From: Candidatus Omnitrophota bacterium
GTDB lineage: Bacteria > Omnitrophota > Gorgyraeia > Zapsychrales > JANLHA01
Assembly (NCBI GenBank): GCA_963662715.1
Contig: OY759724.1
Span: 1,230,001-1,262,000 of the forward strand
Length of the DNA stretch: 32,000 bases
Direction of reading: 5' to 3'
Under the pieces are notes generated by a model that worked only from the letters and a program-made list of their open reading frames with translations, searched no databases and had not been told where the DNA came from. Position numbers and translations under genes: made by a program. Each line of letters opens with the position of its first letter. Positions within the stretch are counted from its first letter, which is position 1. This document shows positions 6,801-30,800 of the stretch, piece after piece.

Positions 6801-9800
6801 AATTCATCGGTGAAATCAACGACATTCAGTTCGATCGACCTCCGGAGCAGGGATTGTTTTTCTCTGAGGAGGCCAGCTTCTGTTTCCGCTAATTCACGGC
6901 GGCGGTCTAACATGCTGGTGACTGTTTCGGCGGCAATATTTCCTCCCTGATCGCTGATCTCATAAAGTCTCTGATAGTAGCGCAGTTCTTGCAGGTTCCG
7001 GTTGGCTAAGACCAGCTCTCTGCGGGTGGCGGACAACCAATCATTGATCAGCGCATTATAATCGCTTTGGCCTCTCGTATCCCGCTCTAAGCTTTCCAGC
7101 TGCTCGATACCTTCTTCCAGGCGCTGGATATACCCCATTCTCTCAATGTCATCCTTGCCATGAGCTCTATCATATAAGCCGTCATCGCCGGTAATGCCTT
7201 TGGATCTGTCTCCGTAATACTGGATGCCTTCCCAAATTTCTTCGCGTTTCGGCAAGAGGTTCTCGAAATCTCTTTCATCCCACAAGGCCTCTATGGCAAC
7301 CAGACGGCCGGGTTTCGGATTGCCTTCGTCGTCATATTCGATTTCTCCCGTGATAGGATCTAACTCATACGGCCCTTCAATGGACTGAATCTGATAGCCC
7401 GCTCGTGTAATGGACAGGTTAACAGCCGCTTTCCAGCCTTCTGTGTCACCTTCCTCCGGCAGGTTGCCTTCGGAATCTCTTTCTCCCAACCCTAAGCCCT
7501 GGGCGGCCAAGACCATGTTCTCGGAAACGCCGTTCTGCAAGTTGCGCAAAGTCGTCAAAGCATCGGCGATATCAGCCAAATCTGTTCTTAAATCTTCAGC
7601 CGTTTCTACGCCGAACAGCGAGCCTGTGCCTCGCTCACGGTATTCGTTGATCACATCCGTCAAGACCTTAACCACATCACCGTCTTCTTCCTCGATCTTT
7701 TCTCTTAATTCGGCAAAGTATTTCTCACCGCTGACGTCGTTAGGATCTTCGGAAAGGGCGATCATTCTCAAATATTTCTCCAAGGCTGTCCCTTCAATCA
7801 GCTTGAAGTCTTGTTCCGCTCCGCTCTGCAGGAAGCTCTTCCAGGCGGCTAACCGCTGCTGGACAACGTCATCGTCTCTTTCAACCATTTGTTTCTCAAG
7901 CTCCTGCAGTTCATTGTCCAGCGTCCCCAACATGGCATTCAGTTCATCGACCAGGCCTTCCTGGCTGTCTCTGGCCTCGGTGAGCTTCGCTATGATCTCA
8001 TTCAGAGCCGTATCCTCGCTATCGAGTTTTAACAGGGTCGCCAGTCTCTGGATGTTCTGAATATCGGCCTGAGAATACTTCACCTGGTCAAAAGCGGATA
8101 ACTCTGTATTCACTTCCGGTTCGGAAACCGGCAGTTCAACGCCGTCTTCGACATCCATGATCGGAGTGCGGTCTGTATACTGATATGTTCCATCGGCATT
8201 CTGGACAGCGACCAGGTTGCCTCTGTCAGCCAGTTCATTGTAAACCTTGGTGAATCCTGGACCGTATTCGAATACGCTGACGTTTCCTGTACGGCGGTTG
8301 ATCAGCAGGGTGTTCGGCAGCACGTCGTCCGCCTGGTACTCGATAATCTTTCTGGCCACTTCTGTCTGGCCGTCCTGCTTGGTCCACTGCATCAGCAGAG
8401 ACATATATTCATCCTGCTCGCGGCTGATATAGTCGTTGACGATTTCCTGTTCGTTGAAGATATAGCGTGAACCTTCTCTCGGGTTGGATACCGAATGAAC
8501 CATGCCCACCGGAACGCCTCTTTCCGGTCTCAAGAAGAGGACGCCGACCTCACCCTTGATGGTTCTCTTATCCTGTAATGTCCAGTATTGTGTGCTGACT
8601 CTGTCTTCCTCTTCCCTCAAGGAGACGACCTCGTTGTCAAGCTGGGCACCGCCGATAACCAGTTTTCTGTACGGCGGCAGGCGGGTCTTCTTCACAACCT
8701 CGTCCGCCGCATACTTAATGGCGCCCTTCTCTAAGTTCGTTAATATCGACTCGTTGGTGACTGTGCTTTCCGGAATAGCGATCAACATTTCCGAGAACTC
8801 TTTATCACGCACAATCAGAATGGTCTGATTCTCTGAGGCCTCAACGATCTCGGAAGAGTTTTCAATTCTTAACGGATCGGTTACGCGGACGTTAACGATA
8901 CGGGCCGGTTCCGTCATTTGGTCCGTCGGATCAAAGACCACCATATCGATGCGTTCGCCGATTTCGGCCGGGATACGACCTAAGATGGCATCGACTTCCC
9001 TGCGGCTTAAGTCGGCGGCATTGTACTGGATTCTTTCACCCCGGTTGTTCAGATATCCGCTTTCTTCGATCTCGTTCAAAATGGTGTTGTAGATGATCTT
9101 GGTCTGTCCGTTCACATCGGCTGTGAGCGTTCCTTCTTCAATATCCAGGAGTTGATCCTGCGTCAGCTGGTCTGTCCTCAGATAATTTCCTTCGGTGTCA
9201 TAAACAGCCATCAAGGCCGCAATATCATCTGCCGGATTCGTATGCATCCAGAGGTTCAGTTCAGCCGGCTCGGCTCCGAAGATCACGATCGGATGGACAT
9301 AGCGGACTTCTTTTTCTCCATTATCTCCGCCTTCACCGCCGTCCGAACCGCCGATTTCGTTGATGATAAAGTGCGGATCAATTGCGACTTCAACCGGGTT
9401 GCGGCCTAAGTAGTAGGTCATGCCGTCACGCTCAAACAGTTTGTTCGGCAGCACGGCCGGCAGGTTCTCTTCGAAATAATGCTCGGCAATGATTTCCAGT
9501 GTCACCGGGTTGATGCTGACAGCCACCGGACGGGTCTCTTTGTTCTTGCCGAACATCGCCTCAAAGAGTCTCTGGTTAAAGACCTCGGACGGCAAGACAT
9601 ACATTTCGCCTTGCTCTCTGTACGGGAAGCGGTTGACCGGATCTTCCATGAAGGCTTTCGTGACCGGGGTCTTCGCTTCCTTCAGAGCCGCGGATGTCTC
9701 TTGCAGGGTTTCTTCCAGCTCTGCCCTTTCAGTCTCATCTGTTGTCTGGCTCAACTGGGCCTGTATCTGGACAATCTCTTCCTGCAATTCTTCAACGGCT

Positions 9801-12800
9801 TCGATGTTATACCAGTAGCGGAGCGTGATGAATACCGTTTCTTTTCTGTCTTCCGGATCCTCGGCTCTCAAATTGTATCGATACCCGAAATCAAACCAGT
9901 CTGCCGGATAAACATTGTCCTCTATTTCAATTGTTTCTCCTTCTTTTCCTCTCTGAACAGCATAGATAATGCTCGGGTCTGTGTTCTTTTTAGCCTCTAA
10001 GGTATAATCGACTTCCCGTCGGCCGATGAACGGTACGGCCGGATATTTATGGCCTTCGTAAACTGAATCCTTATCAGGATCACCAAAGATGCTCCATACG
10101 CGGCCGAAAACTTCCTGGACAAAGTCGCCGATCAAGTGCGACAACGGGATGTCAGCTTTGCGGCCCGTGCGGATATCAGAGAACTTGGCTTCCGTGCCTT
10201 CATCGTTAAGCGGAATAATTTCCGGACTGGCCTTAAGCTCTGTTGTCAGATCCACGAACGGCCGCAAGACGTCCAGGGCTCCGCGGGTCTTATCCAGTCT
10301 CCAGAAAGGATGTTCTCTCTGAACCGCGATACCGCCCACGCCTTCCATGTTGAGGTAAACCTTCTCCATGCCTTCGTTATAAATTTCTGATGCGGCCTGA
10401 GCCCAAGCGACATAAGTGAAGGCTTGGGTAGCGATGGAAGCATCTGCAATGCTTTCCGCCCCGGTGGCCATATTGATAATCTGGGCATATTTATTGAGCG
10501 GTGTATCGAGCCCGATCATGAAATCAAGCGTGCCGTCTTCCCAAAGCTGGATGGAATGCCCGAAAAGCTTGTTGCCCGGATTCCAGTTGATACCGATTCC
10601 GGCGAAGAGGCTGGCCACCTTCTGCTGATCCTGCTGGGTCAATCCATTGGCGAAGTTTTGCGGCGTGGAGGTGAGAACCTGGTTATAAACGTCAAAGACC
10701 TGATATAAGGCTTCCTGCCGTCTGCGTTCATCGTTACGGGCATCGCCTTCTGTCTTCATCTGGATCTGTCTCAGCAGTTGTCTGGCCTTAAGGATATCTT
10801 CTTCTAATTCCTGAATACCTTCGCGGACATCTTCTAATCTGTCTTCCGGTGTCACTTCTTCCGGAGCGTATCTGCCGGCTTCAACGTTAAAGAGTCTTCT
10901 CTGTTCACGATCTATCTGCTGGCGGATCTTCTCTGTCTGGACTTTCGTCGTTTCGCCCCGTTCGCTTAAGACCTGAAGTTCATCTTCTTCCAGGTACGGA
11001 TTCATGAGCGACAAGGTCTCATCATTAATCTTCAGCTTAAAGACATATTCGGACTGGGCTGTTGTCTCGGTTCTAAACGTGCCCGCCAAGCCCAGGATCG
11101 TGCCGGCCTTGATCTCCTGGCCGACCAAGTTAACGTTGGTGCCTGTGAGATGACCGAAGATCTGCTGGACTTTGACTGTCTTGCCTGACCCTTCTTCCAC
11201 TGTTTCGGATTCAATGATAATTTCTTCACCGAACGGACCAGGCTCAACGCTAATCACCGTACCATCCATATAGCTCCGGACTGTGCTCTGTTCCGGCACA
11301 ATATGCTTCACAAACAGGCCTTGTGCTCTGATCTGATATTCAGTATTCACAATCAAGCCTTCCGTCGCCGCTGTTGTTTCCGGAGTTTCTGACGGCACAA
11401 CGCGGCCGGCAAGTTCTGAGGCTACAAATCTCGGAGTATCAATATTATCGAATTCATCAACCAAGGCGTAAATTGGGTTCTTGCTGGCAAACCACAGCAT
11501 CGTTTGCATACGGTCGACCTCGGCAACTTCAACCGCCTGTCTGAACAATCGGTAGACAATCTGGTTCAGCTCTTCTCTCGTCTTGAACTTGTCTTCCTGC
11601 GAAACAATGAAGACCATACCTTGTTTCGGTCCGACCGGCTCATCGGTAAAGGATTCCTCGTCCAAGATAGCGTTAATGTCTGTTATATCTGATTCAGTTA
11701 AGTTTGTTAACGGCTCAACGCCATCTGTTGTGATCTTCATCAAGCCGGCGCCGGTTCGGTAAATCAGGTACGGATCCTGCTGATCCGGAGTGGCGACGCC
11801 GGCGCCTTCTGTTCTGAACTGTGCGTGATCATCGATTCTCAGGATCGACATGACCGGCAAGGCTTCCTTCAGCTCAAAGTTCTGCTTAGCAATCTCCATT
11901 CTCTCTCTCAAGCTCAAGTTCGCAATAACGTCATGCTGTTCGACTTTGGCATCCGCCTCCGTTTCGCTCATAAACCAGATGCCTTCTTCTCTATAAGATT
12001 CGTCAATCGCTTTGAATTCACCGTCAAGTCTGCCTAACCGGGTCGGGACCGTTACCTCTTGTCCGCTGGTCAACCGTGTTCTTAACCGGCCAAGATTATC
12101 CACATCAAGATTTTCGAAATAGTTCATAATTGTTCTGACATACTTCGGTGTTTCCTGGTTCTTGGAGACATCACCCTTAATAACTCTCGGGTAATACCCG
12201 GCAGAATACCCCGGTCCGGCGTTGTATCCGGCCAAGGTGTACTGCAGAAGCTCTCTTAACGTAAGGTCTTTGTTCTCATACTTGCTGTTCAACATGGTAT
12301 CCATAACCTTGGCCACATAAGCGACGCCAACGGTGATATTCTTCTCGCGGTCGAACGCTTCACCATAGGACCATCTGCTGTCGATAAGGCCTCGGCTGTA
12401 AAGCGTGTTAACCATGGAAGACCAGGTGCCCGGCATGATCTGCATAATGCCTGTTGCGCCGGCCCGGCTGACAGCTCTCGGTTTGAAGCGGCTTTCCTGA
12501 TACATCATGGAAATAATGAATTTCTCCAATTCGTCCTTTGTAAATAACGGCTGGCCGTTGTTGTCTTCAAATTCTTCGGCGACCTGTTTAAAGATCGGGT
12601 AGTTCTTCCAGGCATCTTCGAGGATATCATCGAGTTCACGGATATCATGGCTAACCGGTGTTCTGGTCCGGCGGGCTTTTAAGTCTTCCGCATCCGTCAT
12701 TTCTTCGACATCGGATACCGTCATCTGACTTATAGCTTCCACGGTCAACGCTGTTCCTGTGAGGTCTTCATCTGCTTTGGCTTTAAGATATCCGCGGTAG

Positions 12801-15800
12801 AATGCTTCTGTCGGATCAATGCGATATTTATCTCTTGTCATTAAGGAAATCACTTTCTGGCGATCGGAAGACGGCGCAATACAGATTTCCATATGGACAT
12901 GGGCGACCGTTGTTTCGGCATTACCTGTTTTACCCGAGAGGGCAAAGACTTCACCCGCTTCAACTTTATCTCCTTCTTCGACCTCGTAATCATTCAAGTG
13001 GAAGAAGATAAAGAAGACTTTATCGCCGCCCGCCACTGTTTCATCGGATTCGATGAAGACGGTCTTTCCTGCTTTCTCAGACGCAGGATTGGTATGGATA
13101 ACCCGTCCGGAAACCGGCGACTTCAATTCCACGTCTTCCGGCAGTAATATATCGATTCCGCCGTGACCATTGACGGACCCGATTCTATAAGTTCCGAATC
13201 TTCCGTCTCCCTTGGAATCCCGTCCGCGGAGGACCCCGGCAGCGATCATTTCATCTTCAATAGCCGCGTTGTTCTCGAGTCTCTCTGTTGTTTCCGGAAC
13301 GTCCCTGCCTTCCACTCCCGGTTCTTCGGCCACTTTTCTTCTCAGGTCTTCTGTAATCTCACCCTCAGCAATCTTATTGCTGATGTGGACTAACGATTGC
13401 GGTGTCAACTCAAAGTCATCCCGGTCGTCACCGCTGAGCTGGAATGCTTCCTGGAAGAAGGCGATATCCTGTTCATCTAAGTCATCCCATTTGGCCTTAT
13501 CTTCAACAACGGCATCAATAAGAGCTTTGGACAGATATTGTTCTAAGGATTCTCTGTTAGCTTCCACCAGCAACAATGCCAGTTGACGATCGCGTTTTTC
13601 TTTCATATCGGCCAGGAGCTGAAGCTGCAACTGTTCTGCGCTGAGATTGATCAATTCTTTTTCTGAAACATTTTCATCCTTCAGTTTTTCTCTCGTGGCT
13701 GTTATGGCTTCTTCCGCTTGGGCCACGGCATCTTCATCCGAAAGCTCTGCGTCAAAAGTCTTGGCTCTGGCCGCTAATTCGTATACGGCAATATCTTTTT
13801 CTCCACCCATAATGTTCTGATAGACCCAGTTGCTGGCGCGTATTCCAGCTGCATCTTCGACACTATCCAGACCATGCTGAGCCCAGTTAATCGCACCATA
13901 CTGACCTTCAAGAGCTTCGGCCAAATTGTAGATCGGTTTACCCACAACGCCTAAGATCGGGTGTTCAGCCAAGGCCTTGCTGCCGCCCATAACCGCGTCA
14001 ATTTCAATTCCGATCAAGGACATATGCCACAAGCTGCTTAAGAACTTGCCGCCTTCTAAGAGCCATTGAGCGAAATAGGATGTCTTGGCTTTTTCAGTTA
14101 AATCTTTATTAGCTTCCTGCATCAGGTTAACGAAGAAATCAAAATCAAATTTTCTCGTATTATTCATCAGGAAGACCGGGAGATATCCGAGATAGAAGAC
14201 CGTCGCCAGCGGCACACCTAACCAGAAGCCGGTTAAGGCCTTGCCTAATGCTAAGGCCCGGTTCATGATGCTTCGTCCCTGCGGCGCGGCAACCTTGGTT
14301 TCGGCCTCTAACATTTTCTTCAGGGCCGGCCGGCCTTCAGCCGTTACAGTTCCGTCGGCGATCAATTCCTTGATAAGAATTTCTGTCTTCTCATTAGCTT
14401 TCTTGCCCTCTGCCGGATGCATCAAGCCGTACAAGTAGCGGGCAGATGTCGAGGCGATATTAACACCTTGTTTCTTCCTGGCCCGGATATACATAAGATG
14501 TTTGGCTGTATCAAGAACACTCATGAATCTCAAGCCAAGCACCGTAATCATTAATTTGACAAGTTCGGGCACGGATAACGGCAAGCCTAAAGCGTTGGAT
14601 GCGACAACATCCATACCGAATATCGAGATAACGAGAGCGTGGCCGATAACGCCGGAAATGAGAAGCATGGTGCCTCGGCTGACCGCAAAGCGTACGATAC
14701 CAAACGGAACCGGGAAGGCGGAGACCAGCCAAGCCAATAACTTCTGTCGACCATATGTCCAGGTCTTGCGGATACTGCCTATTTTTTCAGTCGCTAATTC
14801 TTCTCTGAGGATCTCGGTCTCTGCTTCAACACTCTTCCTCTTCTGCGCATCCATGGTTCCGTCTTTGTATTCCTTGACGAATTCAGCAAAATCAATAGAT
14901 TTCATGATGTATTCCCAGAAGAAGTTCCAGACCACTTTGACCAGGTAAGGTGCCAGGTATCCGAAGATGGCGCCTTTAGCCACGGAAATCCAGAAAGCTG
15001 TTGTTGCTACTGCTGTTAAAGTAAGCGGCATGAACAGGGCGCCGACAACCGCCCCTGCTGCCAGTGAAACGAGGGCAATCTTTGTCTTATTCTTGTCGAA
15101 GATCCTTAACATGCTGCCGATTAATGAGGACGGCTTCGGAGCATATGTCTGGGAATGTATGATTCTCAACGCCTGGCGTTCGAGCAAGCTGACGCCGCCC
15201 AGGACACCGTAAGTTAAGGAGGCATCTTTTCCAGCCTTAAGATTACTGACGTCCTTCACAAACAGGGCCAAACCGGCCATAATTAGCGATGATACGCCGA
15301 AAATGGCTATAAGCGACCCAGCCATCGTTGGAACGAGGGCAATACCGGCAGCGGCTATTCCAGCGTGAATTAATAATTTGAAGACATTGTAGACATCGCG
15401 CTTTTGCAGCGGTCTGGTGAACAAATCTCTTAAGTTACTCCAAATACCAGGTTTGACTGGACTGGAGACATTGCCGGTCTCATGACTTGAAATCTCTGTT
15501 TCTTCTCCCTTAACCGGACTGGAGACCGAGGTGTCCTCTACAGAAGCCCGTACGGGCGAACTGGCCACAGGAAGCTCGGCCGCCGTGATATTGGCTTGCG
15601 GGCTTAAGTATGTAATTCCGCGGTAAATACCTTGCGGATACCCTGTCGGTAACATCTGATCCGTGAATCTGATGACCATAGATCCACGTTTTACGGCCTG
15701 CTGCCCAGCTGTCGCTATACTGCCTGTTCCGATCTTGCTGATCATGTGTTCAGCAAAGAATCTAGTATTGTTTTCTTCTGCGTCGCCGCTTCCCTCTCCG

Positions 15801-18800
15801 CCGGCCGAAATTTCGAAGACGATCTTTGTTCTCATGCTTTCCAGCAGTCTGCCTAAGTCCACTATCGGATTCAGGAGAGCGCTAAGAAGTCTTTCTGTCT
15901 GTCTCTTATTGTCTTGATATGTCTTTGTTAAGAGATAATAGTAGAACCCTGTCTGCTCTTTATAGGTTTCTGAGATACGGCTTAATTGCTTAATAAACTC
16001 ATCTTGTTTCTCAAAGCCTCTATTGACACCGGAATCAAAGACGGCCTTCAAGCCATACAAGGCCGTTGTGCTTTCCTCTCCGGCATTTCTGTCGATGGAC
16101 GTGATCAGGTCAGCCAATTGTTCTCTGCTTGTGCTTCTGTACAACTTCGAAGCAAACATTCTTCTGAAGAGGTAATCTCTTGCTCCCCTTGCTGCTCTTC
16201 TGTAATTTTCAGCCGTGCTGAGCGCTGTCCAGGCCGCCGTCAGGTGCTCAACCGTCTTCCTGTAATCTCTGGCCATGAACTCTTTGACCTTGCCAGGTAC
16301 ACTTCTGAGCGCTGTCCAGGCCGCCGTCAGGTGCTCAACCGTCTTCCTGTAATCTCTGGCCATGAACTCTTTGACCTTGCCAGGTACACTTCTGAGCGCT
16401 GTCCAGGCCGCCGTCAGGTGCTCAACCGTCTTCCTGTAATCTCTGGCCATGAACTCTTTGACCTTGCCAGGTACGCTTCTGAGCGCTGTCCAGGCTGCCG
16501 TCAGGTGCTCAACCGTCTTCCTGTAATCTCTGGCCATGAACTCTTTGACCTTGCCAGGTACACTTCTGAGCGCTGTCCAGGCTGCCGTCAGGTGCTCAAC
16601 CGTCTTCCTGTAATCTCTGGCCATGAACTCTTTGACCTTGCCAGGTACACTTCTGAGCGCTGTCCAGGCTGCCGTCAGGTGCTCAACTGTCTTCTTGTAA
16701 TCTCTGGCCATGAACTCTTTGACCTTGCCAGGTACGCTTCTGAGCGCTGTCCAGGCTGCCGTCAGGTGCTCAACCGTCTTCCTGTAATCTCTGGCCATGA
16801 ACTCTTTGACCTTGCCAGGTACGCTTCTGAGCGCTGTCCAGGCCGCCGTCAGGTGCTCAACCGTCTTCCTGTAATCTCTGGCCATGAACTCTTTGACCTT
16901 GCCAGGTACGCTTCTGAGCGCTGTCCAGGCTGCCGTCAGGTGCTCAACCGTCTTCCTGTAATCTCTGGCCATGAACTCTTTGACCTTGCCAGGTACACTT
17001 CTGAGCGCTGTCCAGGCTGCCGTCAGGTGCTCAACCGTCTTCCTGTAATCTCTGGCCATGAACTCTTTGACCTTGCCAGGTACACTTCTGAGCGCTGTCC
17101 AGGTCGCCGTCAGGTGCTCAACCGTCTTCCTGTAATCTCTGGCCATGAACTCTTTGACCTTGCCAGGTACACTTCTGAGCGCTGTCCAGGCTGCCGTCAG
17201 GTGCTCAACCGTCTTCCTGTAATCTCTGGCCATGAACTCTTTGACCTTGCCAGGTACACTTCTGAGCGCTGTCCAGGCTGCCGTCAGGTGCTCAACCGTC
17301 TTCCTGTAATCTCTGGCCATGAACTCTTTGACCTTGCCAGGTACACTTCTGAGCGCTGTCCAGGCTGCCGTCAGGTGCTCAACCGTCTTCCTGTAATCTC
17401 TGGCCATGAACTCTTTGACCTTGCCAGGTACGCTTCTGAGCGCTGTCCAGGCCGCCGTCAGGTGCTCAACCGTCTTCCTGTAATCTCTGGCCATGAACTC
17501 TTTGACCTTGCCAGGTACGCTTCTGAGCGCTGTCCAGGCCGCCGTCAGGTGCTCAACCGTCTTCCTGTAATCTCTGGCCATGAACTCTTTGACCTTGCCA
17601 GGTACACTTCTGAGCGCTGTCCAGGCTGCCGTCAGGTGCTCAACCGTCTTCCTGTAATCTCTGGCCATGAACTCTTTGACCTTGCCAGGTACGCTTCTGA
17701 GCGCTGTCCAGGCTGCCGTCAGGTGCTCAACCGTCTTCCTGTAATCTCTGGCCATGAACTCTTTGACCTTGCCAAGTACGCTTCTGAGCGCTGTCCAGGC
17801 TGCCGTCAGGTGCTCAACCGTCTTCCTGTAATCTCTGGCCATGAACTCTTTGACCTTGCCAGGTACGTTTCTGAGCGCTGTCCAGGCCGCCGTCAGGTGC
17901 TCAACCGTCTTCCTGTAATCTCTGGCCATGAACTCTTTGACCTTGCCAGGTACGCTTCTGAGCGCTGTCCAGGCCGCCGTCAGGTGTTCAACCGTCTTCC
18001 TGTAATCTCTGGCCATGAACTCTTTGACCTTGCCAGCTTTAATGCTTACAGCCTCAACAGTGCTGTCAACCATCTCTTTCACGCCACCTCGTTTGATGAA
18101 GTTATAAACCCTTGCGCCCAACATCAAGCCAGGAATAATGAGAAGGACTGGCCAAACGGCACCAACCGTTGTCGCAACAACTGGTACGGTCTTTGCCACA
18201 ACCGGCAAGCCGACTGTCAGACCTTTACCTAATCCATAGGAAACAATGAGGTAGAGTATCGCAGATTTGATGGTTCCTGTTGCTGCAGCTCTGAACATAT
18301 TTCTATAGGTTACAGCACTAAAGACCGAACGGAAGAACCTCGCCGTACTCGCTCCGAATGTCTTTACGGCTTCGCCCATCTGTCTTGCTTTCTTTGCCGC
18401 TCTCTGATATCTCTTGTAGGACTTGGAAAGCAGGATATCTTCAATAACTTCTTTATCTTTACCCGCTAATAATTGGGCTAATTCATCGTTATTATCGAGT
18501 TTCAAGCGTCTCAATAATTTTTCTGTTTCACCGAGATTTCTTTCTATCGGTGAAGAGGAGGCAGAAGCTGTAACGGATTCGCGGCCAGAGGCGGAAAGAA
18601 CAACCTTCTCTCCCACCTCTGGTGTTTGAGATAATGCATATCTGCCTCCCTTAGTTGAGATTTCTGCGTGATCCTGTTCTGTAAATCGGAACTGTTCTAT
18701 TCTGGATCGCACTGGAGAGGATGCCTCGAACATGGTTGTACTCGGCTGCGCTGGTAAGCTCAACCCAAGTTGCTTTAAGGCCGTTACGGCGGTAAATCCG

Positions 18801-21800
18801 GCCTTTATGGTTGAAGATGAGGTATAAATGAGTTCTTCCTGTCTTCTCTCTGGCAGTGCCGAAGATACAGTCGCAACGCTGGATCTCAACGAGATGTTTG
18901 AATTCGATGTCTGGTAATTGATTGGTTTGCGTGTTGATAAGGACCATAATGTACCTCCTGTGGTTAATTGAATTGCTTGTGTATTTGTTCTATCAAATGA
19001 AGAACCCTGACCGGTAATATCTGCACGAATGGCAGCCATACCAGACAGGGTTCGTTTTGTATGGGATATAAGTGAAGCAACAGATCCTATATTTGCAGCT
19101 CTTGGTGCAACTTCATATCTGAGCTTCAATAAGGTAAGATTTGTCCTTATAGAGACATATGTGTCATATATGCCTTTAGTAATGACACAAATAGCTTTGG
19201 CGAGATTTTCTCGCTTAAAGACTTGAGTTAAGAGTTTTACTCTCTTGAGGGACTTTGATACAACTAACGATACGAGTGGCGTGCTAACTGGAATAGCAGC
19301 AGCCAATAGTTTCTCAACACCTAATGAACCTTCCCAAGCCATTCTAGACAGCCCAGAAATAGTTCTTGTAGTGTTTCTCTTTTCGCCTGTACCAGTTGCC
19401 TCGTTCTGATCCGCAGCTCTATCTGTTACAACCGCTACATCCTGAGTAAACTCTGCCTTGTCAGAACCTCTACCCGTTGTTACAGCAATAACCGCCTGAG
19501 CGATTCTCAGATCAAATTCATCCGCTAAAGCTTTATCCTCAGCAGCGCTTACCTTTATACCTACAGGCAACACTCTGAGAACTCTTCTTAACACATCTTC
19601 AGAACCACTTATCACCTCGATCGCTTTCGCAATCCAAGCTCTCAGCAATTCTGCGATACTGCTAAGCACACCTTCAGCAGATTCTTCGTACGCTTCTACA
19701 GTACTTACAGCCTGACCAGTCACCTGACCAAACCGTATACCTAAGGCTTTATTCTCAGTCACATCCATTACTGGCTGTACTCTGAGAATTCCACTGGAAA
19801 CAGCTTTTACTGATCCAGGCACAACTTCAGTTCCTGTTATCAGTACACCATCACCAGCAACCCTAGCTTCTGCTCGTACTGCATTCGCATAGCTAATCAC
19901 TTGACCGATTACTCGACCAAGCTTCACAAAGGCTTTTGCCTCAGCAAGACTTACTGTTTCTTCAACAGCTTGTTCACTGAGAACCTTATCAGATACAATA
20001 TTCGAACTGCTTACACCTTCGATTACTTGCGCAACCTTAGACTTCAGCAATCCTTCTACTATACCTTCACTTCTTACAGAGCGGTTTACTACAGTTACAA
20101 CGCGGTTAGCCTGAGCGATTCTCAGATCAAGTTCATCCGCTAAGGCTCTATCCTCAGCAGCGCTTACCTTTATACCTACAGGCAACACCCTGAGAACTCT
20201 TCTTAACACATCTTCAGAACCACTTATCACCTCGATCGCTTTCGCAATCCAGGCTCTCAGCAATTCTGCGATACTGCTAAGCACACCTTCAGCAGATTCT
20301 TCGTACGCTTCTACAGTACTTACAGCCTGACCAGTCACCTGACCAAACCGTATACCTAAGGCTTTATTCTCAGTCACATCCATTACTGGCTGTACTCTGA
20401 GAATTCCACTGGAAACAGCTTTTACTGATCCAGGCACAACTTCAGTTCCTGTTATCAGTACACCATCACCAGCAACCCTAGCTTCTGCTCGTACTGCATT
20501 CGCATAGCTAATCACTTGACCGATTACTCGACCAAGCTTCACAAAGGCTTTTGCCTCAGCAAGACTTACTGTTTCTTCAACAGCTTGTTCACTGAGAACC
20601 TTATCAGATACAATATTCGAACTGCTTACACCTTCGATTACTTGCGCAACCTTAGACTTCAGCAATCCTTCTACTATACCTTCACTTCTTACAGAGCGGT
20701 TTACTACAGTTACAACGCGGTTAGCCTGAGCGATTCTCAGATCAAGTTCATCCGCTAAAGCTTTATCCTCAGCAGCGCTTACCTTTATACCTACAGGCAA
20801 CACCCTGAGAACTCTTCTTAACACATCTTCAGAACCACTTATCACCTCGATCGCTTTCGCAATCCAGGCTCTCAGCAATTCTGCGATACTGCTAAGCACA
20901 CCTTCAGCAGATTCTTCGTACGCTTCTACAGTACTTACAGCCTGACCAATTTCACTACCTAAGACCGTATCCCTGACAGCTTCACTTATACCACTTGAAG
21001 CCACTTCAGGAACATCTTCTAATATAGTCAAGGCATTTACAGCTCTTTCAGTTGTTTTCACAACATCAGAACCTTCATAAACCTCAACCACACTAGCATC
21101 TTCGACAGTTACTGCACCTACTGTCTTAGCATACACGGCTTGAGCATCATCTCGTTCAAGCTTTTGTTCAAAGGCATTATCCTCAGCAGCACCTACTTCT
21201 ATATAAGCAGATACCTTGAGAACATGACCATACAGAATCTTTGCACCGCTTATTGCTTCAACATCGCGCAACTGCTTCACAGCAACTAACGATACCTGAT
21301 CTCTTCCAGCCATACCATTGATACTTCCAACATACGCAACATCAGCAGCCTTGCTTACAGCAGACATATAGTCTACATCAAAGGCTTTACCCTCAGCACA
21401 TAAGCCACTACTGGCCAACACACTCAGGATACGATTTGTGAATACGTTATTCAGCACATTCTCATTACTGAGGACGGCTACAACATATCCATCAAACCTT
21501 ACACCCCTGACAAAGCTTACTTCAGTAACAATGTCAGCATGATCAATTACTTGACCAAGTATACCAAAGGCATCTAACTCAGCCTCACCGGATACATCAT
21601 CAGCGAATACTCTGAGTTTTCCACTGTACAGAGAATCAGCACCGCTTATTGCTTCAGCCACACTTACAGCATCCACATTAAGCCATACACTGAATCCGCT
21701 AGTACTACCTTTAACAGAACGTGATACAACTCTTCCAACACCAACAACGGAAACAGTTTGATCGCTTACACGACCATACTCATTGCTGATTGCACTAGAC

Positions 21801-24800
21801 ACACCAAATACATCACTTGATTGTGTACTAGCCTTCTCATCATTAGACACAGCATTCGATTCGCTTCCAAGCGTTGATACACCTTCATCATCACTTGTAG
21901 TCGTATCTTCAACAACGCTAACGATAAGTACAGAGCGATTAGTCCATTTGCTGCCGTACGTTCTAAGGATCGTTACAACACGATTCGTATACTGCTTCAA
22001 CCAAGCACTAACTTTCATCAGGGCCGATCTAACAGCCACGAATATTCCTTCAGCTACCTTGAATGGCTCTTCAAGGTTGTAGCTGGCTGTAGGCACAGCT
22101 TCCGGTAATGTACTTCTTCTAGACCCGTTACCAGACTCAGATCTAGCAATTCCCTGAATCAATCCGGACAATAGAGCCATAACTGCCTTGGCTATGCCTC
22201 CGAAGAGTATAGACCAATCAATTGCAGCTATACCACTAATACCAGATGTTCTCAAAGAACCGGCATTGGCGTATGTTCCACCTACACCTCTCGTGTTAAC
22301 GCCTCCACGATTGGCGCTCACCCATCGAGTCTCTAACTCATCCTCGGCTTTTTGTGTTGCTGCCGAGAGAACTGTACTACTCGTCTCAACATTGACGATT
22401 GCACTGCTTACACCGTTCGCGTTATCGTCACCGCGACTGGCGTTTCTCACCCAATTAGTTTTTAACTCTGGTGTCACCGCTGTCGAAGCAGCCGTGATCA
22501 CACGAGCCGATTCAGCGATTGTACTGCTCACACCAGCAGCTACGCTAGTTCTGGTGGCGTGTTTCTCCCTTACTTCTGTCTTCGCCTCTGATGTGGCCGA
22601 TGCGACAACCACACGAGCCGATTCAGCGATTGTACTGCTCACACCAGCAGCTACGCTAGTTCTGGTGGCGTGTTTCTCCCTTACTTCTGTCTTCGCCTCT
22701 GATGTGGCCGATGCGACAACCACACGAGCCGATTCAGCGATTGTACTGCTCACACCAGCAGCTACGCTAGTTCTGGTGGCGTGTTTCTCCCTTACTTCTG
22801 TCTTCGCCTCTGATGTGGCCGATGCGACAACCACACGAGCCGATTCAGCGATTGTACTGCTCACACCAGCAGCTACGCTAGTTCTGGTGGCGTGTTTCTC
22901 CCTTACTTCTGTCTTCGCCTCTGATGTGGCCGATGCGACAACCACACGAGCCGATTCAGCGATTGTACTGCTCACACCAGCAGCTACGCTAGTTCTGGTG
23001 GCGTGTTTCTCCCTTACTTCTGTCTTCGCCTCTGATGTGGCCGATGCGACAACCACACGAGCCGATTCAGCGATTGTACTGCTCACACCAGCAGCTACGC
23101 TAGTTCTGGTGGCGTGTTTCTCCCTTACTTCTGTCTTCGCCTCTGATGTGGCCGATGCGACAACCACACGAGCCGATTCAGCGATTGTACTGCTCACACC
23201 AGCAGCTACGCTAGTTCTGGTGGCGTGTTTCTCCCTTACTTCTGTCTTCGCCTCTGATGTGGCCGATGCGACAACCACACGAGCCGATTCAGCGATTGTA
23301 CTGCTCACACCAGCAGCTACGCTAGTTCTGGTGGCGTGTTTCTCCCTTACTTCTGTCTTCGCCTCTGATGTGGCCGATGCGACAACCACACGAGCCGATT
23401 CAGCGATTGTACTGCTCACACCAGCAGTTACGCTAGTTCTGGTGGCGTGTTTCTCCCTTACTTCTGTCTTCGTCTCTGCTGTGGCTGATGCGACAACCAC
23501 ACGAGTCGATTCAACGATTGCACTGCTTACACCGTTCGCGTTATCGTCACCGCGATTGGCGTTTCTCACCCAATTAGTTTTTAACTCTGGTGTTACTGCT
23601 GTCGAAGCAGCCGTATTCACACCAACCTTTGCTATCGTTACAACATATTCAAGTCCTGTCCTCTCTTGAGCAGCTTTTCCTGCCTGAATGCCTGAGGAGG
23701 CATTGGCAGCGGCCCACGGCGTGGGACTAGAGCCAGAACTTCTAAAATTCTTTTTGGCTCCTTTGTCTATACTTAAATCTATGTGTTGCCGTTCTGCTTG
23801 CGGATCAACAATTGGTGCGCTGGCAACAGAAGCTTTATTAGCATTCATATTTCTGGCATAGGCGATAACCAAAGCTGTCTTGGCTTTTGCCGTTCCTGTA
23901 GCTCCGGCAGTTCCTCCGCCAGGAGCCGGCTCTTCAACAGGAGCAGGAGAACTAAACGGTGAACTTGTAATAGGAACACCTTTGGTTCCGCTATCCTTTC
24001 GGCCTTCTATAGGATTATGTTGATTGGACGGAAGAGACAACTTCCCAAGACTGAACGCTGCTATAGGCAATGCAGGGATAAATATTGGAGAAGACGGCAC
24101 AGCTTGCACAGGTAATTGCGGCGGTGCAACAGGCTCTGTAACAACAACTGGCGGTGCTAGCGGCTGTTCTTCCGGAGGCGCACGAGAAGCTTCCGTTAAT
24201 ACGGTTTCTTCCGGTTTAGAAAGGTCTTCCTGTTTAGCCACTTGCCCTGATACCTTATCCTGAATTGTTATCCCTGAAGCATCGGCAGGTTTCTCTGCTT
24301 GGGCCTTGTCCACTTTTGCCACTTCAATAACTTCTTCCTGGGCTCCTTCTTTAATTTCACTGCCGAACAAGAAGGCAAAGGCATCTTTAAGTTGTCCCCA
24401 CAAGCTCTCTGAGGACTCTTCGCCAACGAGAGCAACCAAATCTTCCTTAGTTTTAATTTTACGCAACTGATTAAGCGATTTTTCTAATATTGGATAGCCG
24501 TCTTCTGAAATTGTACGCTGTCCTTCCTGCTGTGCGGCATTGATAACAGCGTCCATCTCTTTGGCAAGCAACTGTCTTTCTGCCTGATCCTGAATTGACT
24601 GAGACATGACGGCCTTTATAACATCAAATGCTTTTCTGTTATCGACTGACAACTTCTCAATTTGCTGAATAACTGGTGAAGCCTGCGCAAGGCGCGGAAC
24701 CTCTGTAACCGTACCTGGTTGGTCTTTGGCTGTGGTAGAAGCTTTTGCAATTTCAACATATTTGGTTTGACTCTTTAACTTCTGACCATACGGAGTTCTT

Positions 24801-27800
24801 AATTCAGGCAAATTCATAGGGCTGGATAAAGCAACTATGATCGTTTCTGGAGTCTTTGATGGCGACTCGGACGGGAGATCTCCCGCGGATTCCTGAGTCG
24901 CTGATTCTGCCGGATTCATGATAATCATTGAAGACATCATCAGCAGACCACCAGATTTCACCTTTTGCTTTTGGGCTGCAATTCTTTTTGTTCTTGACGC
25001 CGTCCATTTCTGCTCCATAGCATTGGAAGGCAGATTCTGCGCCGGGGTCCTGGCTGGCTGAATCCTCACATAAGGTTTGGCAACTTGTGCAGGGGCAGAA
25101 GGACGAGTGATCTCTTGCTGTGTTGACTGAATAACCCGTGCATTCTTACTGGTCATCAACTCATCAACCGTAAATGACTTCACATTACCGTCTCTCATCT
25201 CCAGGCTGGCAAGTCTAACCTCCTGATCACTGCCAGGTGCCTTAAACTTAACCTGAGAAACGATCTTTCCAACCTCACTTATATTGTTTTGCCCGGACAA
25301 CTCTACCGTCTTACCCACCTGAGAAGGCTGCCCTTTAAATTCTTCTGTTATTATCGGACTGGCAACTGCAGCTAAAGCCATTTCTTCGCCAGCCGTGGCC
25401 GTCGTAGTAGTAGGACTAGGAAGAATGGCAGGAGGCATAGCAGCGGCTACGGATATTTCTTCTCTAGACGAAGCCGCCGACTCAACTTTTCCTCTGGAAG
25501 CAGCTGACGGCGTTTGAGCTAATAAGCCCATTGACGGCATAGTGGTCGCATCCATTCCAGGCAGCAATGGCAAGACTGTAGCCGGTGCGGCCGGAACAGC
25601 GGCTGGCGTTGATGCCGGCTGTTCAATAACAGTCGTTTCAGCCACCTGCTCTTTACGTGTTGTTATGCCTCGATCAATCGCAATATCAAACTGATACTGT
25701 TCAATATCCGACTTGCGGGTCGAAGCGACAACAATTTGCTCACCCGTCAAAGTTGTATACAGAATAGGGATGTCTTTCAGCTTGAATTGATCTTTTTCTA
25801 TTGACTTAAGGTCTCTGGCGAGGATCTTTCCAACCTTATTCGTCACGGCGACAACAAAGACGCCAAAAGCATCTTTAACCTCTAATTCCCTGGCTTGAGA
25901 TTCTTCAATAAATGCCCTGTACATACCCAAAGGATCGGAAATGCTCAAGTTATGCTTCCTGGCTTCGGCTATTCTCTGGTTCTGTGTCGCGACGTACTCC
26001 GGACCTATAATCAAGTAGGTCTGGCCTTTATTGTTCTTAATGATCCTGATTCCCTTAGGTTCAACGAAATAATTAAAATCATCGATCTTCACAAAGTCAA
26101 TTTGAATGTTCTCTTCCATCGCCAACTGTCTTGTCAAGGCTTCTAAATAATCTCCCATACTAAAGTCGGCGCCAGGAATGATATTGTCAAAGTCAACACG
26201 TTTATCAAATCTTACTGGTTTAAATACCGGTTTCTCGTTATCCACACTAACCATGACCATCTTTTCAGAATAGATCAATTGATTTCCGTTTACCGGCACG
26301 GCCAATTCCATTTCCTCGTCAAATTTAGCCCAAGCCAAATATCGAGTATTTCCTAAATGAACGGAAACCGGCAGCCATTTCTCTCCAGATGTTTTATCAA
26401 GGTATATATCCGCTGTTTTATCTGCCTCTATCAAGTATAAATTCCTGCGCTGGATATCACTCAATCCGGCAATAATCCGGCCTACTTCTATAATATTCAC
26501 GCCCTTGAATTCCATCTGCTGACGTCTCACCCGCCCTGTAGCATCGACGAACCGGACAAAATTCTTTTCGATATAGGCCCTGTCCCCGTCAGGCAAGCGA
26601 ACGACTGTAACCGCTTCCGGATCAATTCGATTTCGAGCAATAGTCTCAGCCCGCGTCTTCTCCATGGCTATAACAATATTTTCACGGCTGTCAACGATAA
26701 GGGACGTCGTTTCTATTTCTTTAGGATTATTTACCAAAGCTTGCGTCAACAATATTGTCTTTGGCTCCCCTCGCTTATTAATATCTGTTAACAAAATTTT
26801 TGCCGGAAGATTCATGTCTGAAGGAACAATCTGAATCCGGCTAATCTGTGATAAATCAGAAATATCAACCGATTTCGCCAAAGACACCAAAACACTCTCA
26901 ACCTGTTCTTGGGCGGAGAAATCACGTTTATCATAAGCAATCAATGTCGGGCTATCTGATTTGATCTGGCCTTCGGAGATTAAATCATGTTCTTTTAATA
27001 CCGCCCCAACGTCAACCGTACGATATTCTGAGCGTAAGGAATGGGAATACTTGCCTGTTTTCATGGCAATGGCGATACGATCTGTCTTTTCGATCTCCGG
27101 AATTTCTTTCTGTTCTCCCAAAATCGGATTAGAAACCACCCTGCGGAACGTCTCTTCCGGAATCAAAACAGTTCTGGTGTTCTCTGTTTCATCCGTAAGA
27201 TACAGTCTTGACTCCAAACCTTTACCCCGGATAATCTTAACGTGAGTTGTTCCTTCCTTGAACTCCGGATAGCTTCCCATAAGATCTAGGAGGCCCATCT
27301 TCTCAGAAACCGACAAATTGGCAGAATAGATAACCGAGGCATCTGATGCCTTTTCTTGGGTCAATGGGCTGGATAATGATGCTATCTCGAGGATTTCTCC
27401 CTGAACAAGCTGAAGTTTCTCGGTTGTCGGGAAAAGATGCTCGACCAGATCATTGTCCAAATAAGGCTTACGACCGACAATGTATTTTCTTAAATCTTCT
27501 GCTGACGGCTTCAAAGTCTGAGCATTCCCCAAGAGAACAACAGGGAAGTTACGCGGTAACTGATCAAACGGCAGTCTTTCTGATATAATTTCTCCATCCA
27601 AGCTCTTGTGATAAGCCACAAACGGTGTTTTTCTTGCCGCTTGAAGGGTTTGCATCAAATTTCTTACCAAAACGATATCATAATCGTCCAATTGAGGAAC
27701 CGCTTTTAAGAGCTTGTCCAGCCTGTTAATCGTTGCGGGTTTCTCCATCATAAGCATGGATATCTGCTGAATCGAATCCTGGGATAAGCTCATTCCTAAT

Positions 27801-30800
27801 TGGGTGGTAATGCGTTCCACTTCCAGGGCTTCCAGCGTCGGGACATAGACATAAACCGGTCTTGAAGTGTCAGTGACTGTTTTACGCGCCGAGGCTAACA
27901 ATTCAGGAAGAGTCTTATCTTCTTCAAAAAGAACAACCGATTTATTGGCATCATGAGCTAATCTCACTTTTTCTTCTAACGAAGCAGCCTTCTGGTGAAT
28001 TGTACCGCTTGTAATATCCCAGAAAGATAAATTCTCCGATTCTATTTCTCTCTCCAAATCTTTCTCAGTCGGCTCATAATAACCGTCTATCGGGGATGAA
28101 CTTGCCTGTGCCAAATCTGTAGCCGCAGAAGTTGAAACTTCTCTATTCGCCATAGGGCCGCCGCTAAAGGCAGGCAAAAGAATCGGTGCAGACAAAACAG
28201 GTAACGGCGCCGTAAGAGGAGCACTCACCGGTAATTCCACGGCCTGTTCCGGAGCCTTCGGAGACGGAAGGACATCCTCTCCTTCCGCGGAAGCGGCCTT
28301 TTTCATCTGTCCGCCGTGATCAACGACAGTGGCGGAAACCATCAACAATCCACCTTTTTTCTCCGGTTTTGGCATAGAAGCAAATTGAATCTCCGGTTTC
28401 GTAAGATTCAAATTACGCACAGGAGAAGGTGTCGGACGAATGCTGCTGCCGTCAATGGCATTAGAAGCAAGTTGTGTTAATCCCTGCTTTATTGTTTCCC
28501 CGGCAGACTTCTTCAACATTTCAGCTCTTATAGCTCCTGTCTTCTCTGCTGATTCAACGACAGGAGAGGACAATGTTGGGAATGTCGGGGCCGTGATCGT
28601 CGGAGCCACAGGGGCTGTTACAGACGGAGCTGCGACCATTTGCACCGGCTTTTCTGCAGACAGGGCTTGTGTCTGTGTTTCTTTAACAAGCGATGAAGAG
28701 ACAGACACCATGCCACCCGGCTGAGTCTGTGCAGCTTCAGGCTGCTTCAAAACAGATGAAGAGACAGTCATCATGCCGCCGGCTTGCGTTTCTGTCATGG
28801 TCATAGGCGACGGTTTAATCACCGACGAAGATACCTGCATCATGCCGCCCCGTTTTTCCGGTTTTGTCACCTGCTGACTTGTTTTAAGCGAAATGTCTCT
28901 GTTCCGGCTTGTTGTGTCGACCTTGGCAAGTTCCACCGGTTTGCTGCCCGGTAAAGCCGTTTCAAATGCTGGCAAGACCGCCGGGCTTGATATAGACGGA
29001 ACAGACGGAGCAACGGTTACAGGAGAAGCGGCAACAGCTGTTACCGGCTTCATTTCCGGTTTCTCAACAACAGATGAAGAAACTGTCATCATGCCGCCGG
29101 CTTGCGTTTCTGTCATAGTCATAGGCGACGGCTGAATAACCGACGAAGACACCTGCATCATGCCGCCGGCTTGCGTTTCTGTCATGGTCATAGGCGACGG
29201 CTGAATAACCGATGAAGACACCTGCATCATGCCGCCCGGCTGTGCTTGGGCCATAGCCACCGGCGACGGCTGAATAACCGACGAAGACACCTGCAGCATG
29301 CCACCACGTTTAGCCGGTTTCTTTGTGAATTGTATTTCTTCTCTAGATAAAGATCTCTGGCGTGAAGTTGTGTCAACTTTTGCCAGTTCCACAGTCTTTC
29401 TTCCTGGCTGAATATCTTTGCTTAACGGAGATGACGTCATAAGAGGCATCGGCATCGTCGTCGGAAGAGTAACAGCCGGGGCTTGCGGCGTCGCCACAAC
29501 AGGAGAAGCAGAAACCTCTACGGTTCTAGGTGCTTCAAGGGACGGAGCCTTAATGACAGCCGTCGAATCCTTCTTCACAACCGTTGAAGAAACGGTCATC
29601 AATCCGCCGGCCTGAGTTTCTGTCTTGGCCATAGGTGACGGCTTGATAACAGCAGACGATACCTGCATCATGCCGCCCGGCTGAGCTTGGGCCATAGCCA
29701 CCGGCGACGGCTTAATCACTGATGAAGACACCTGCATCATACCGCCTCGTCTGGAAATATTCTTAGGAGATAGAGCATAGCCCCGTTCCTGAGCTGTCAG
29801 CGGCATGGACCACCGTAACGGGCTGCTGGAACTGCTGCTGCCCTTCGGTTGAGACAAGGAGGCCAGCAAAGCTTCCTTAGCTTGTTTAGGAACATAGGCT
29901 TTTAACGGCGCGTTCATCTTCTGCGCCCAAATAATTCTATTATTGCCGTCGTACGCCGTTCCGTCACCGTTTAACGCCACGGGATCCTGCACCATAACGG
30001 CCATGATCGCCCTTTCTGTGCGATAAGGACTAAGGTTTGACATCTTCGGAGAAAGGTTCTGCACCTGCTCTGGAGTCAAGGTGACCAATTCGTCATATTT
30101 TGCCGGCGGCTGCACATCGAAAATAACTTCTCCCTGTGCCTGCGTCCTGATTTCAGAAGCAATCTGCGGATTCTCCTTCATTATTTCGGAAATCTTGGAA
30201 ACCAAGACAGCTTCTTGCGGCTGGGAAGCGGCGTTCATGGACCCCGTCAAAGCCCTGAGATCGGAATAATTGATATCTTTCGCATCTTTAGCAACAACAG
30301 AGGAAACTCTCTCCGGCAGTTCAATCGGAGAAGAAGAAGGCTTTTCTGTTAAGTCATAGGATTTCGCCATGAATTCACTGTTCGGCATTTCAACAAACTT
30401 CTTTAAAGCTTTTTCATAATCATGATCCAGGTCCCCCCGGTTTTCCACAACCATAACACCGAGGACCTTCTCCTCTTCAAGCACTCTGAAGACAACCCTT
30501 TGATTCCCCAGCCTGAGTTTATTAAGACCTTTTAAGGCCTGGTTGTATTCAAATTTAGACGGTTCCGGGCTCTCGAGGAAAGTTGTAAAGGAATCTGATA
30601 ATCTGCTTTGGACTTGATTGAGCTTGGCCTTCCTGACGTCCTTCAACACGCGGACAGTATAGCCTTTAACATTTACCGGCTGAGCGGCTGCGGCCACTTC
30701 GGCCGATGAAGAACCTTCAGTTCCTTCCCGTTTAGCGGCAAATTCTTTCTTTGACAGGCCCCAGCGCTGCAGATTATTCATAACCCGATGACGTGTCGAA

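Follow-up and report, generated by a model that had tools for sequence, protein, structure and literature searches.

Phage tape-measure proteins can carry lytic domains, as do CwlP/YomI of Bacillus phage SPbeta (SLT and M23) and Pb2 of T5; among the wall hydrolases of conjugation and type IV secretion systems (T4SSs), PrgK of pCF10 has the order transmembrane (TM) segment, LytM, SLT and CHAP, and is found with VirB6-like polytopic partners; and Ebh of Staphylococcus aureus and spectrin-type repeats form giant helical-repeat rods. Giant proteins of Omnitrophota, the 'Archaeovorins', have also been described (bioRxiv 10.1101/2023.11.21.568195; 10.64898/2026.06.07.730766). Here we consider a window of 32,000 nucleotides (nt) from a Candidatus Omnitrophota bacterium (contig OY759724.1, positions 1,230,001 to 1,262,000), whose minus strand is taken up by a single giant open reading frame (ORF) containing a tandem repeat of a 615-nt unit that encodes 205 amino acids (aa). 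On balance we favour the reading that this repeat is a real, very recent in-frame amplification in a repeat-prone helical spacer of a giant envelope protein that is membrane-associated and lytic to the wall. Like the Archaeovorins, the ORF exceeds 10,000 aa, encodes TM helices and an SLT domain (occasional in Archaeovorins), is largely unannotated and belongs to the uncultured world of the Planctomycetes-Verrucomicrobia-Chlamydiae (PVC) type. Unlike them, it has no SecA_DEAD, HEAT, TPR or enzyme-cluster domain within the window, beyond which the ORF continues, and its TM-like helices in the window are confined to about 10 segments. According to a 2026 survey, no long gene of Omnitrophota reaches 10% tandem array by a strict criterion (10.64898/2026.06.07.730766), whereas about 13.5% of our window consists of tandem arrays with an identity of at least 98%, and the ORF is thus unusual among Omnitrophota giant proteins in its share of recent, near-identical tandem sequence. 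It is in architecture that the ORF resembles tape-measure proteins and T4SS hydrolases; membership of the tape-measure family failed the tests that we ran, and no T4SS marker genes were found within the window.

The 205-aa repeat unit is certain. A near-identical zone at window 19484-20956 on the minus strand (aa 3682-4172 of the ORF), identified by direct-repeat search, lag scan and copy comparison, comprises 1473 nt, or 2.40 copies, and shows sharp edges in a codon-register lag scan. Read along the minus strand, it consists of a partial copy (20783-20956), two full copies (20168-20782 and 19553-20167) and a second partial copy (19484-19552). Between the full copies (aa 3740-3944 and aa 3945-4149) there are 4 differences in 615 nt (99.3% identity), and the partial copies carry differences of their own. 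The original prediction for this stretch, that a 615-bp unit is repeated 2.4 times with few substitutions, is therefore borne out; the nucleotide strings quoted there lie at 19512 and 20127, and its peptides are the minus-strand translation of aa ~3434-4175. Direct repeats spaced by 615 nt were found at 19494-19793 and 20109-20408 (98%), and a third, at 20724-21023, reaches only 80% because the run extends beyond the edge of the array. The array goes unreported by Tandem Repeats Finder, whose longest period was 500, and a BLAST search of the whole protein against itself gave the identity match alone; self-comparison was made by chunked BLAST and lag scans.

What the original prediction overlooked is the context, in that a single ORF of more than 32 kb holds several near-perfect arrays, this repeat among them. 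A six-frame scan shows that the minus strand of the window is one stop-free frame from 2 to 31999 (10,666 codons), open at both window ends; residue i occupies window positions 32002-3i to 32000-3i. The longest ORF in any other frame has 748 aa. Codon differences within the repeats bear on whether this frame is coding. Between copies of a 29-aa array, described below, synonymous and nonsynonymous differences stand at 20:4, and the minus frame is therefore under purifying selection. Between copies of the 205-aa unit they stand at 3:1, the single replacement being a K/R change, so that copy differences are mostly synonymous, and the 615-nt unit length is a multiple of three. We note that two plus-strand ORFs, at 15986-18232 (748 aa) and 22188-23669 (493 aa), coincide exactly with the 29-aa array and with a 37-aa array; these arise as antisense artefacts because the repeats lack stops, and a gene caller could be misled by them.

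Within the unit, three sub-units of about 68 aa can be delimited on the minus strand. In the first full copy these are S1 (aa 3740-3810, 71 aa; 20570-20782), S2 (aa 3811-3874, 64 aa; 20378-20569) and S3 (aa 3875-3944, 70 aa; 20168-20377), S1 and S2 being assigned by shuffles, hidden Markov models (HMMs) and alignment, and S3 by HMM and by comparison with a distant relative, P0006, in which it is the sole sub-unit type also recognisable. They are highly diverged (about 20-30% identity), and local alignments scored against shuffles give z = 4.2 for S1/S3 and z = 4.9 for S2/S3. When an HMM was built from two sub-units and searched for the third, the missing sub-unit was recovered at full length and in register in each case (independent E-values 1e-3, 2e-2 and 6e-5, the best match on the reversed protein being 0.3). 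Alignment with hhalign of an S3-type profile (S3, the decayed units U1 and U3, and the P0006 element) and an S1/S2-type profile (S1, S2, U2 and U4) gave E 2.3e-4 over 59 columns in register. A lag scan of aa 3400-3944 that uses no boundaries returned 205 (trivially), 138, 71 and 132 as its top lags, each of which exceeds the 95th percentile of the maxima obtained from shuffles. The seven-unit alignment has common end motifs, AExKA[LF]...GQ...E-x-[IV]-S-G-[SA]...[VI]L[RK]V, and the pattern taken from it, although derived after the fact, was found in the repeat zone only.

The decayed units lie beside the array, at aa 3400-3679 (20963-21802, minus strand). HMM matches, pairwise scores and the lag scan delimit four of them, each of ~61-78 aa: U1 (aa 3400-3470, S3-like), U2 (aa 3471-3534, S2/S1-like), U3 (aa 3535-3601, S3-like) and U4 (aa 3602-3679, S1-like). 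The HMM of all three sub-units makes four weak matches here, contiguous and in phase across aa 3403-3651 (independent E-values 0.006-0.8), and none in the remaining ~9,900 aa of the ORF. Their best pairwise scores are z 6.0 (U1 with S3) and z 4.8 (U4 with S1), and the direct-repeat search placed a D2 copy, at 73%, at 21156-21203. From the N-terminal side into the array, the order of units is S3'-S2'-S3''-S1'-[S3 S1 S2 S3 S1 S2 S3 S1]. The diverged copies that had been proposed at 20949-21700 are therefore upheld as weak, in-phase units, but they reach to about 21802 and, given the minus-strand orientation of the gene, precede the array in the protein, on its N-terminal side, rather than lying downstream of it. 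Judging from these comparisons, we regard both the sub-period and the decayed copies as probably real but highly diverged, and the HMMs, hhalign and the lag peaks together lend moderate strength to the view that a sub-repeat is nested within a super-repeat, that is, that this is a hierarchical tandem repeat.

The array lies in a variable spacer between two conserved anchors recognised by sequence comparison. The N-terminal anchor block (aa 3161-3357; 21929-22519, minus strand), common to P0006 and a second relative, P0007, contains a hydrophobic helix at aa 3263-3281 and a 'WLKQ...YGSK' element; the C-terminal anchor block (aa 4254-4442; 18674-19240, minus strand) matches aa 780-965 of P0006. 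The spacer would have been built from an old array of ~68-aa modules, rich in V, A, E and S and probably alpha-helical, of S1/S2-like and S3-like types. A block of three modules (615 nt) would then have grown to 2.4 copies, a gain of about 290 residues, by unequal homologous recombination or slippage during replication between modules in phase with one another; gene conversion within the array is a further possible mechanism. Both edges of the array grade into weakly similar, in-phase older units, which fits recombination inside an existing array. It had been proposed that a ~68-aa fold was triplicated and the triplet then re-amplified; a recent re-amplification of a three-sub-unit block beside older copies agrees with what we find, but a simple triplication at the outset is not established, and the data fit an older array of at least seven sub-units in which a three-unit block was duplicated later. 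The 205-aa unit is probably helical, as its hydrophobicity spectrum peaks at a period of 3.7 residues (z 4.2) and the secondary structure predicted by AlphaFold2 is, at low confidence, mostly helix.

Only three distant relatives were found across billions of proteins. A phmmer search with aa 3234-4333 against 1.84 billion cluster representatives returned only P0006 (1376 aa, E 9e-11) and P0007 (393 aa, E 3e-4), each of which is a singleton cluster. P0006 is encoded on a 13.3-kb metagenome contig from ENA (L001, 58% GC), where the ORF is matched, part after part, by individual homologous genes that lie in different frames, their products being, in order, >189, 1376, 470, 682, 677 (SLT), 209, 299 and >292 aa. 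The match is collinear: the first gene corresponds to aa 98-190 of the window ORF, P0006 aa 108-299 to aa 3161-3357, P0006 aa 493-556 to the S3 elements, P0006 aa 780-965 to the C-terminal anchor, the 682-aa protein to aa 5276-5781, and the SLT protein to aa 5974-6036 and 6494-6608. Between its anchors P0006 has one S3-like element, and an 87-89-aa 'WLKQ...YGSK' element is there amplified three times; P0007 carries a repeat of ~108 aa. Across the family, then, the spacer is prone to repeats, and each lineage has expanded a unit of its own. L001 also holds, at 6058-6734 inside a polytopic membrane protein gene, a 225-nt array of three copies at 98%. A further relative, a 2.4-kb contig from an uncultured Planctomycetia bin (L002), has a single open frame that matches aa 5542-6014 and spans one of the gene boundaries of L001, so that fusion is not unique to our window; its binning to Planctomycetia is a PVC-type link with the Archaeovorins.

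Other searches for relatives were largely negative. A word-indexed homologue search with the repeat region and one with a three-sequence TM alignment found nothing, and with the M23/SLT region found remote SLT proteins only. IMG/VR, JGI metagenome contigs, phage records and plasmids held no relatives of any part beyond generic SLT/M23 matches; phages and plasmids yielded nothing by megablast, and an exact 50-mer from the window had none in the viral, genome and metagenome collections searched. We propose that the window ORF and its relatives define a repeat family and a protein family that are both new, the latter built around putative M23 and SLT wall hydrolases.

These hydrolase domains follow the spacer in the chain. 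A cluster of TM-like helices (aa 5539-5945; 14165-15385, minus strand), homologous to the 682-aa protein and to the Planctomycetia contig, precedes a Peptidase_M23 domain (aa 6278-6373; 12881-13168, minus strand; PF01551, 70.6 bits against a cut-off of 28.7) and an SLT lytic transglycosylase domain (aa 6492-6597; 12209-12526, minus strand; PF01464, 59.2 bits against 21.3). The M23 domain, which matches PDB 5kqb (E 3e-10), keeps its zinc-ligand motifs HxxxD (H6279-GGID) and HxH (H6367-V-H), and the SLT domain keeps its catalytic motifs ES (E6502-S), GIMQI and AGYNAG; the two match solved structures of LytM, lysostaphin and Slt70/MltC, and both look catalytically competent from their motifs. Since the TM cluster and intact M23 and SLT domains follow in the chain, we infer that the repeat would act as a length-adjustable structural linker or rod, a spacer or ruler in a membrane-associated, wall-penetrating protein, rather than as a catalytic or ligand-specific domain. 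The order TM segments, then M23, then SLT is also that of PrgK, and in L001 the gene of a polytopic membrane protein adjoins that of the SLT protein, as in T4SS modules. Unlike T4SSs and PrgK, neither the window nor L001 has VirB4/VirD4 ATPases, a relaxase or a CHAP domain, and plasmid matches cover the SLT or M23 domains only.

A bolder interpretation, to which we give rather little credence, is that an operon for a wall-lytic, envelope-penetrating apparatus, present as at least five separate genes in L001, was fused into one polypeptide in which independently expanding arrays add length as tunable rods, the chain possibly being cut at SSP[VIAL] sites, and that it belongs to an undescribed family of PVC/Planctomycetia type. 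We observe the SSP[VIAL] motif 15 times in the window ORF (window ~15460-31420, aa 195-5512), where 0.7 are expected, and 12 times in the L001 operon proteins, 7 of these in P0006, where 0.36 are expected; it is a conserved feature of the family and possibly a processing or modification site.

Several points weigh against the reading that we favour. Sub-unit homology is modest: S1 and S2 align with z = 1.2, the hhalign probability is 44%, and control windows elsewhere in the ORF reach z 4.6, so that single pairwise scores are not decisive. Sub-unit boundaries, which follow the split originally predicted, were set by eye before the profiles were built. AlphaFold2 gave no confident model of aa 3634-4150 as a single sequence, with a predicted local distance difference test (pLDDT) score of 34; S3 with a seven-row sub-unit alignment reached a low-confidence pLDDT of 54, with three helices, and Foldseek against the PDB found nothing below E 7.8. 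Translation of the entire 32-kb frame as one chain is a prediction from the sequence, and a duplication as young as this one may be no more than neutral. The originally predicted three related ~68-aa sub-segments thus stand on the leave-one-out HMMs, hhalign and the lags at 71 and 132-138, with modest scores, while the idea that each is a fold is not established, the predictions yielding helices only. It could be, then, that the sub-period is an artefact of composition or of amphipathic helices and that the true unit is one 205-aa segment, merely duplicated, as the low S1/S2 and hhalign values, the scores of unrelated controls and the low complexity of the repeat region (V 17%, A 13%) would suggest. 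We regard this as somewhat unlikely, as such an artefact would not readily account for the recovery of left-out sub-units at full length and in register, for top unbiased lags at one and two times the proposed period, for motifs at both sub-unit ends that recur in this zone alone, or for HMM matches that follow one another contiguously and in phase and are confined to this one stretch of the protein.

Another possibility, which we consider unlikely, is that the ORF encodes the stalk of a giant surface adhesin of the Ebh, LapA or MpIBP kind, in which copy number would serve surface variation or reach. The abundance of near-identical in-frame arrays in the window, the near absence of Cys (3 residues over 10,666 aa) and the plausibility of helical modules all speak for a stalk, and giant bacterial proteins are commonly taken as adhesion or wall-degradation factors (bioRxiv 10.1101/2023.11.21.568195). 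The ORF also resembles Ebh-type rods in its hierarchical repeat, with small, probably helical modules in a larger tandem unit, and in encoding a putative giant envelope protein, but there is no match to FIVAR, GA or spectrin families (in Pfam, with FIVAR and GA tested on aa 1-4000 and 3501-7500), the copies here number about 2.4 recent and about 4 old, and the structure prediction is of low confidence. No adhesin, Ig-like or cadherin family matches either, hydrophobic helices flank the spacer on both sides with a multi-TM cluster in mid-protein, and in L001 the corresponding parts are encoded by individual genes of an operon rather than joined in a single secreted fibre.

The ORF might also be an extreme tail tape-measure protein of a phage or prophage, its 205-aa repeat setting tail length at about 1.5 angstrom per residue, which we likewise consider unlikely. 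It shares with phage tape measures that carry lytic domains a long, probably helical, repeat-rich and almost Cys-free chain that has hydrophobic segments and in which M23 and SLT domains are embedded, and in these proteins internal tandem duplications likewise alter chain length; PHROG tape-measure families 4070 and 167 match, and tblastn matches annotated tape-measure/SLT genes of Geobacillus E3 and SPbeta-like phages. All such tape-measure-family and phage matches are confined to the M23 or SLT domain, however (for the PHROGs, to the M23 stretch at aa ~6264-6374), and over the remainder of the 10,666 aa no tape-measure family of Pfam, NCBIfam or PHROGs was matched. Apart from generic SLT/M23 matches there are no relatives in IMG/VR, and tblastn with N-terminal, spacer and C-terminal pieces of 3,000 aa found none in 50,697 phage records of INPHARED; the neighbouring genes in L001 match no phage or tail family, and the window, which lies wholly inside the ORF, shows no viral context. 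The ORF is, moreover, 5-10 times longer than phage tape measures, its length of more than 10,666 aa would call for a tail exceeding 1.6 micrometres, and its M23 domain precedes SLT, with about 4,000 more residues, acidic ones, after the lytic domains. A phage tape measure is thus not demonstrable from the sequence, as no viral relatives or tape-measure families match. Least probable by far is an assembly artefact in which one 615-nt segment was passed through repeatedly, for although exact 50-mers have no match in the public collections searched, the copies can be told apart by 4 distinct substitutions and the partial copies by their own, the frame stays open, the harder arrays of 87 nt (21 copies) and 111 nt (9 copies) were resolved with private substitutions, and the related locus likewise has a 98% array.

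The ORF contains further arrays on the minus strand that are independent of the 615-nt array. One, of a 111-nt/37-aa unit (ASATSEAKTEVREKHATRTSVAAGVSSTIAESARVVV), spans 22499-23533 in 9.3 copies that are 99% identical, with a duplicated 'TAVTPELKTNWVRNA.RGDDNANGVSSAIV' segment on either side. Another, of an 87-nt/29-aa unit (TVEHLTAAWTALRSVPGKVKEFMARDYRK), spans 16218-18036 in 20.9 copies that are 98% identical; matches to Pfam HAAS, NCBIfam ZbmA and SmsB, and phrog_16578 on this array were judged to be score inflation by the summing of 21 identical repeats. Units of 69 nt/23 aa (QVSSSVIQPSPMTMTETQAGGMM-like, 61-85% identity) are scattered over ~1 kb of a P/S/T-rich segment at window 28683-29750. 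Towards the C-terminal end of the window ORF, a diverged pair of ~189-aa repeats (LDWSDVSEKLLHNGWAQ... and LDWEEISEKLLARGWAE...) occupies window ~60-800 (aa ~10400-10650) within a long acidic region that has no homologues (aa 6600-10666). Besides the cluster at aa 5539-5945, hydrophobic helices occur at aa 3263 and aa 4604, about 10 TM-like segments in all. Outside the M23 and SLT domains the ORF has no Pfam, NCBIfam, PHROGs or PDB-sequence match save the repeat-inflated ones and a weak RelE-like PHROG match at aa 461-523 (E 6.5e-4). Rfam and tRNA scans of the window gave no match, nor did PADLOC on aa 1-7500.

By itself, the repeat is ordinary biology; its setting is an unusual giant gene that is almost without relatives. 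Published giant bacterial genes mostly show old, decayed repeats, whereas several arrays at 98-99% identity within one ORF would catch the growth of a giant gene in progress. In a related locus the parts of this gene are separate genes, with another module expanded at the same position. Together these observations suggest a testable model for the origin of giant genes, in which operon fusion would be combined with local tandem amplification of helical spacers.

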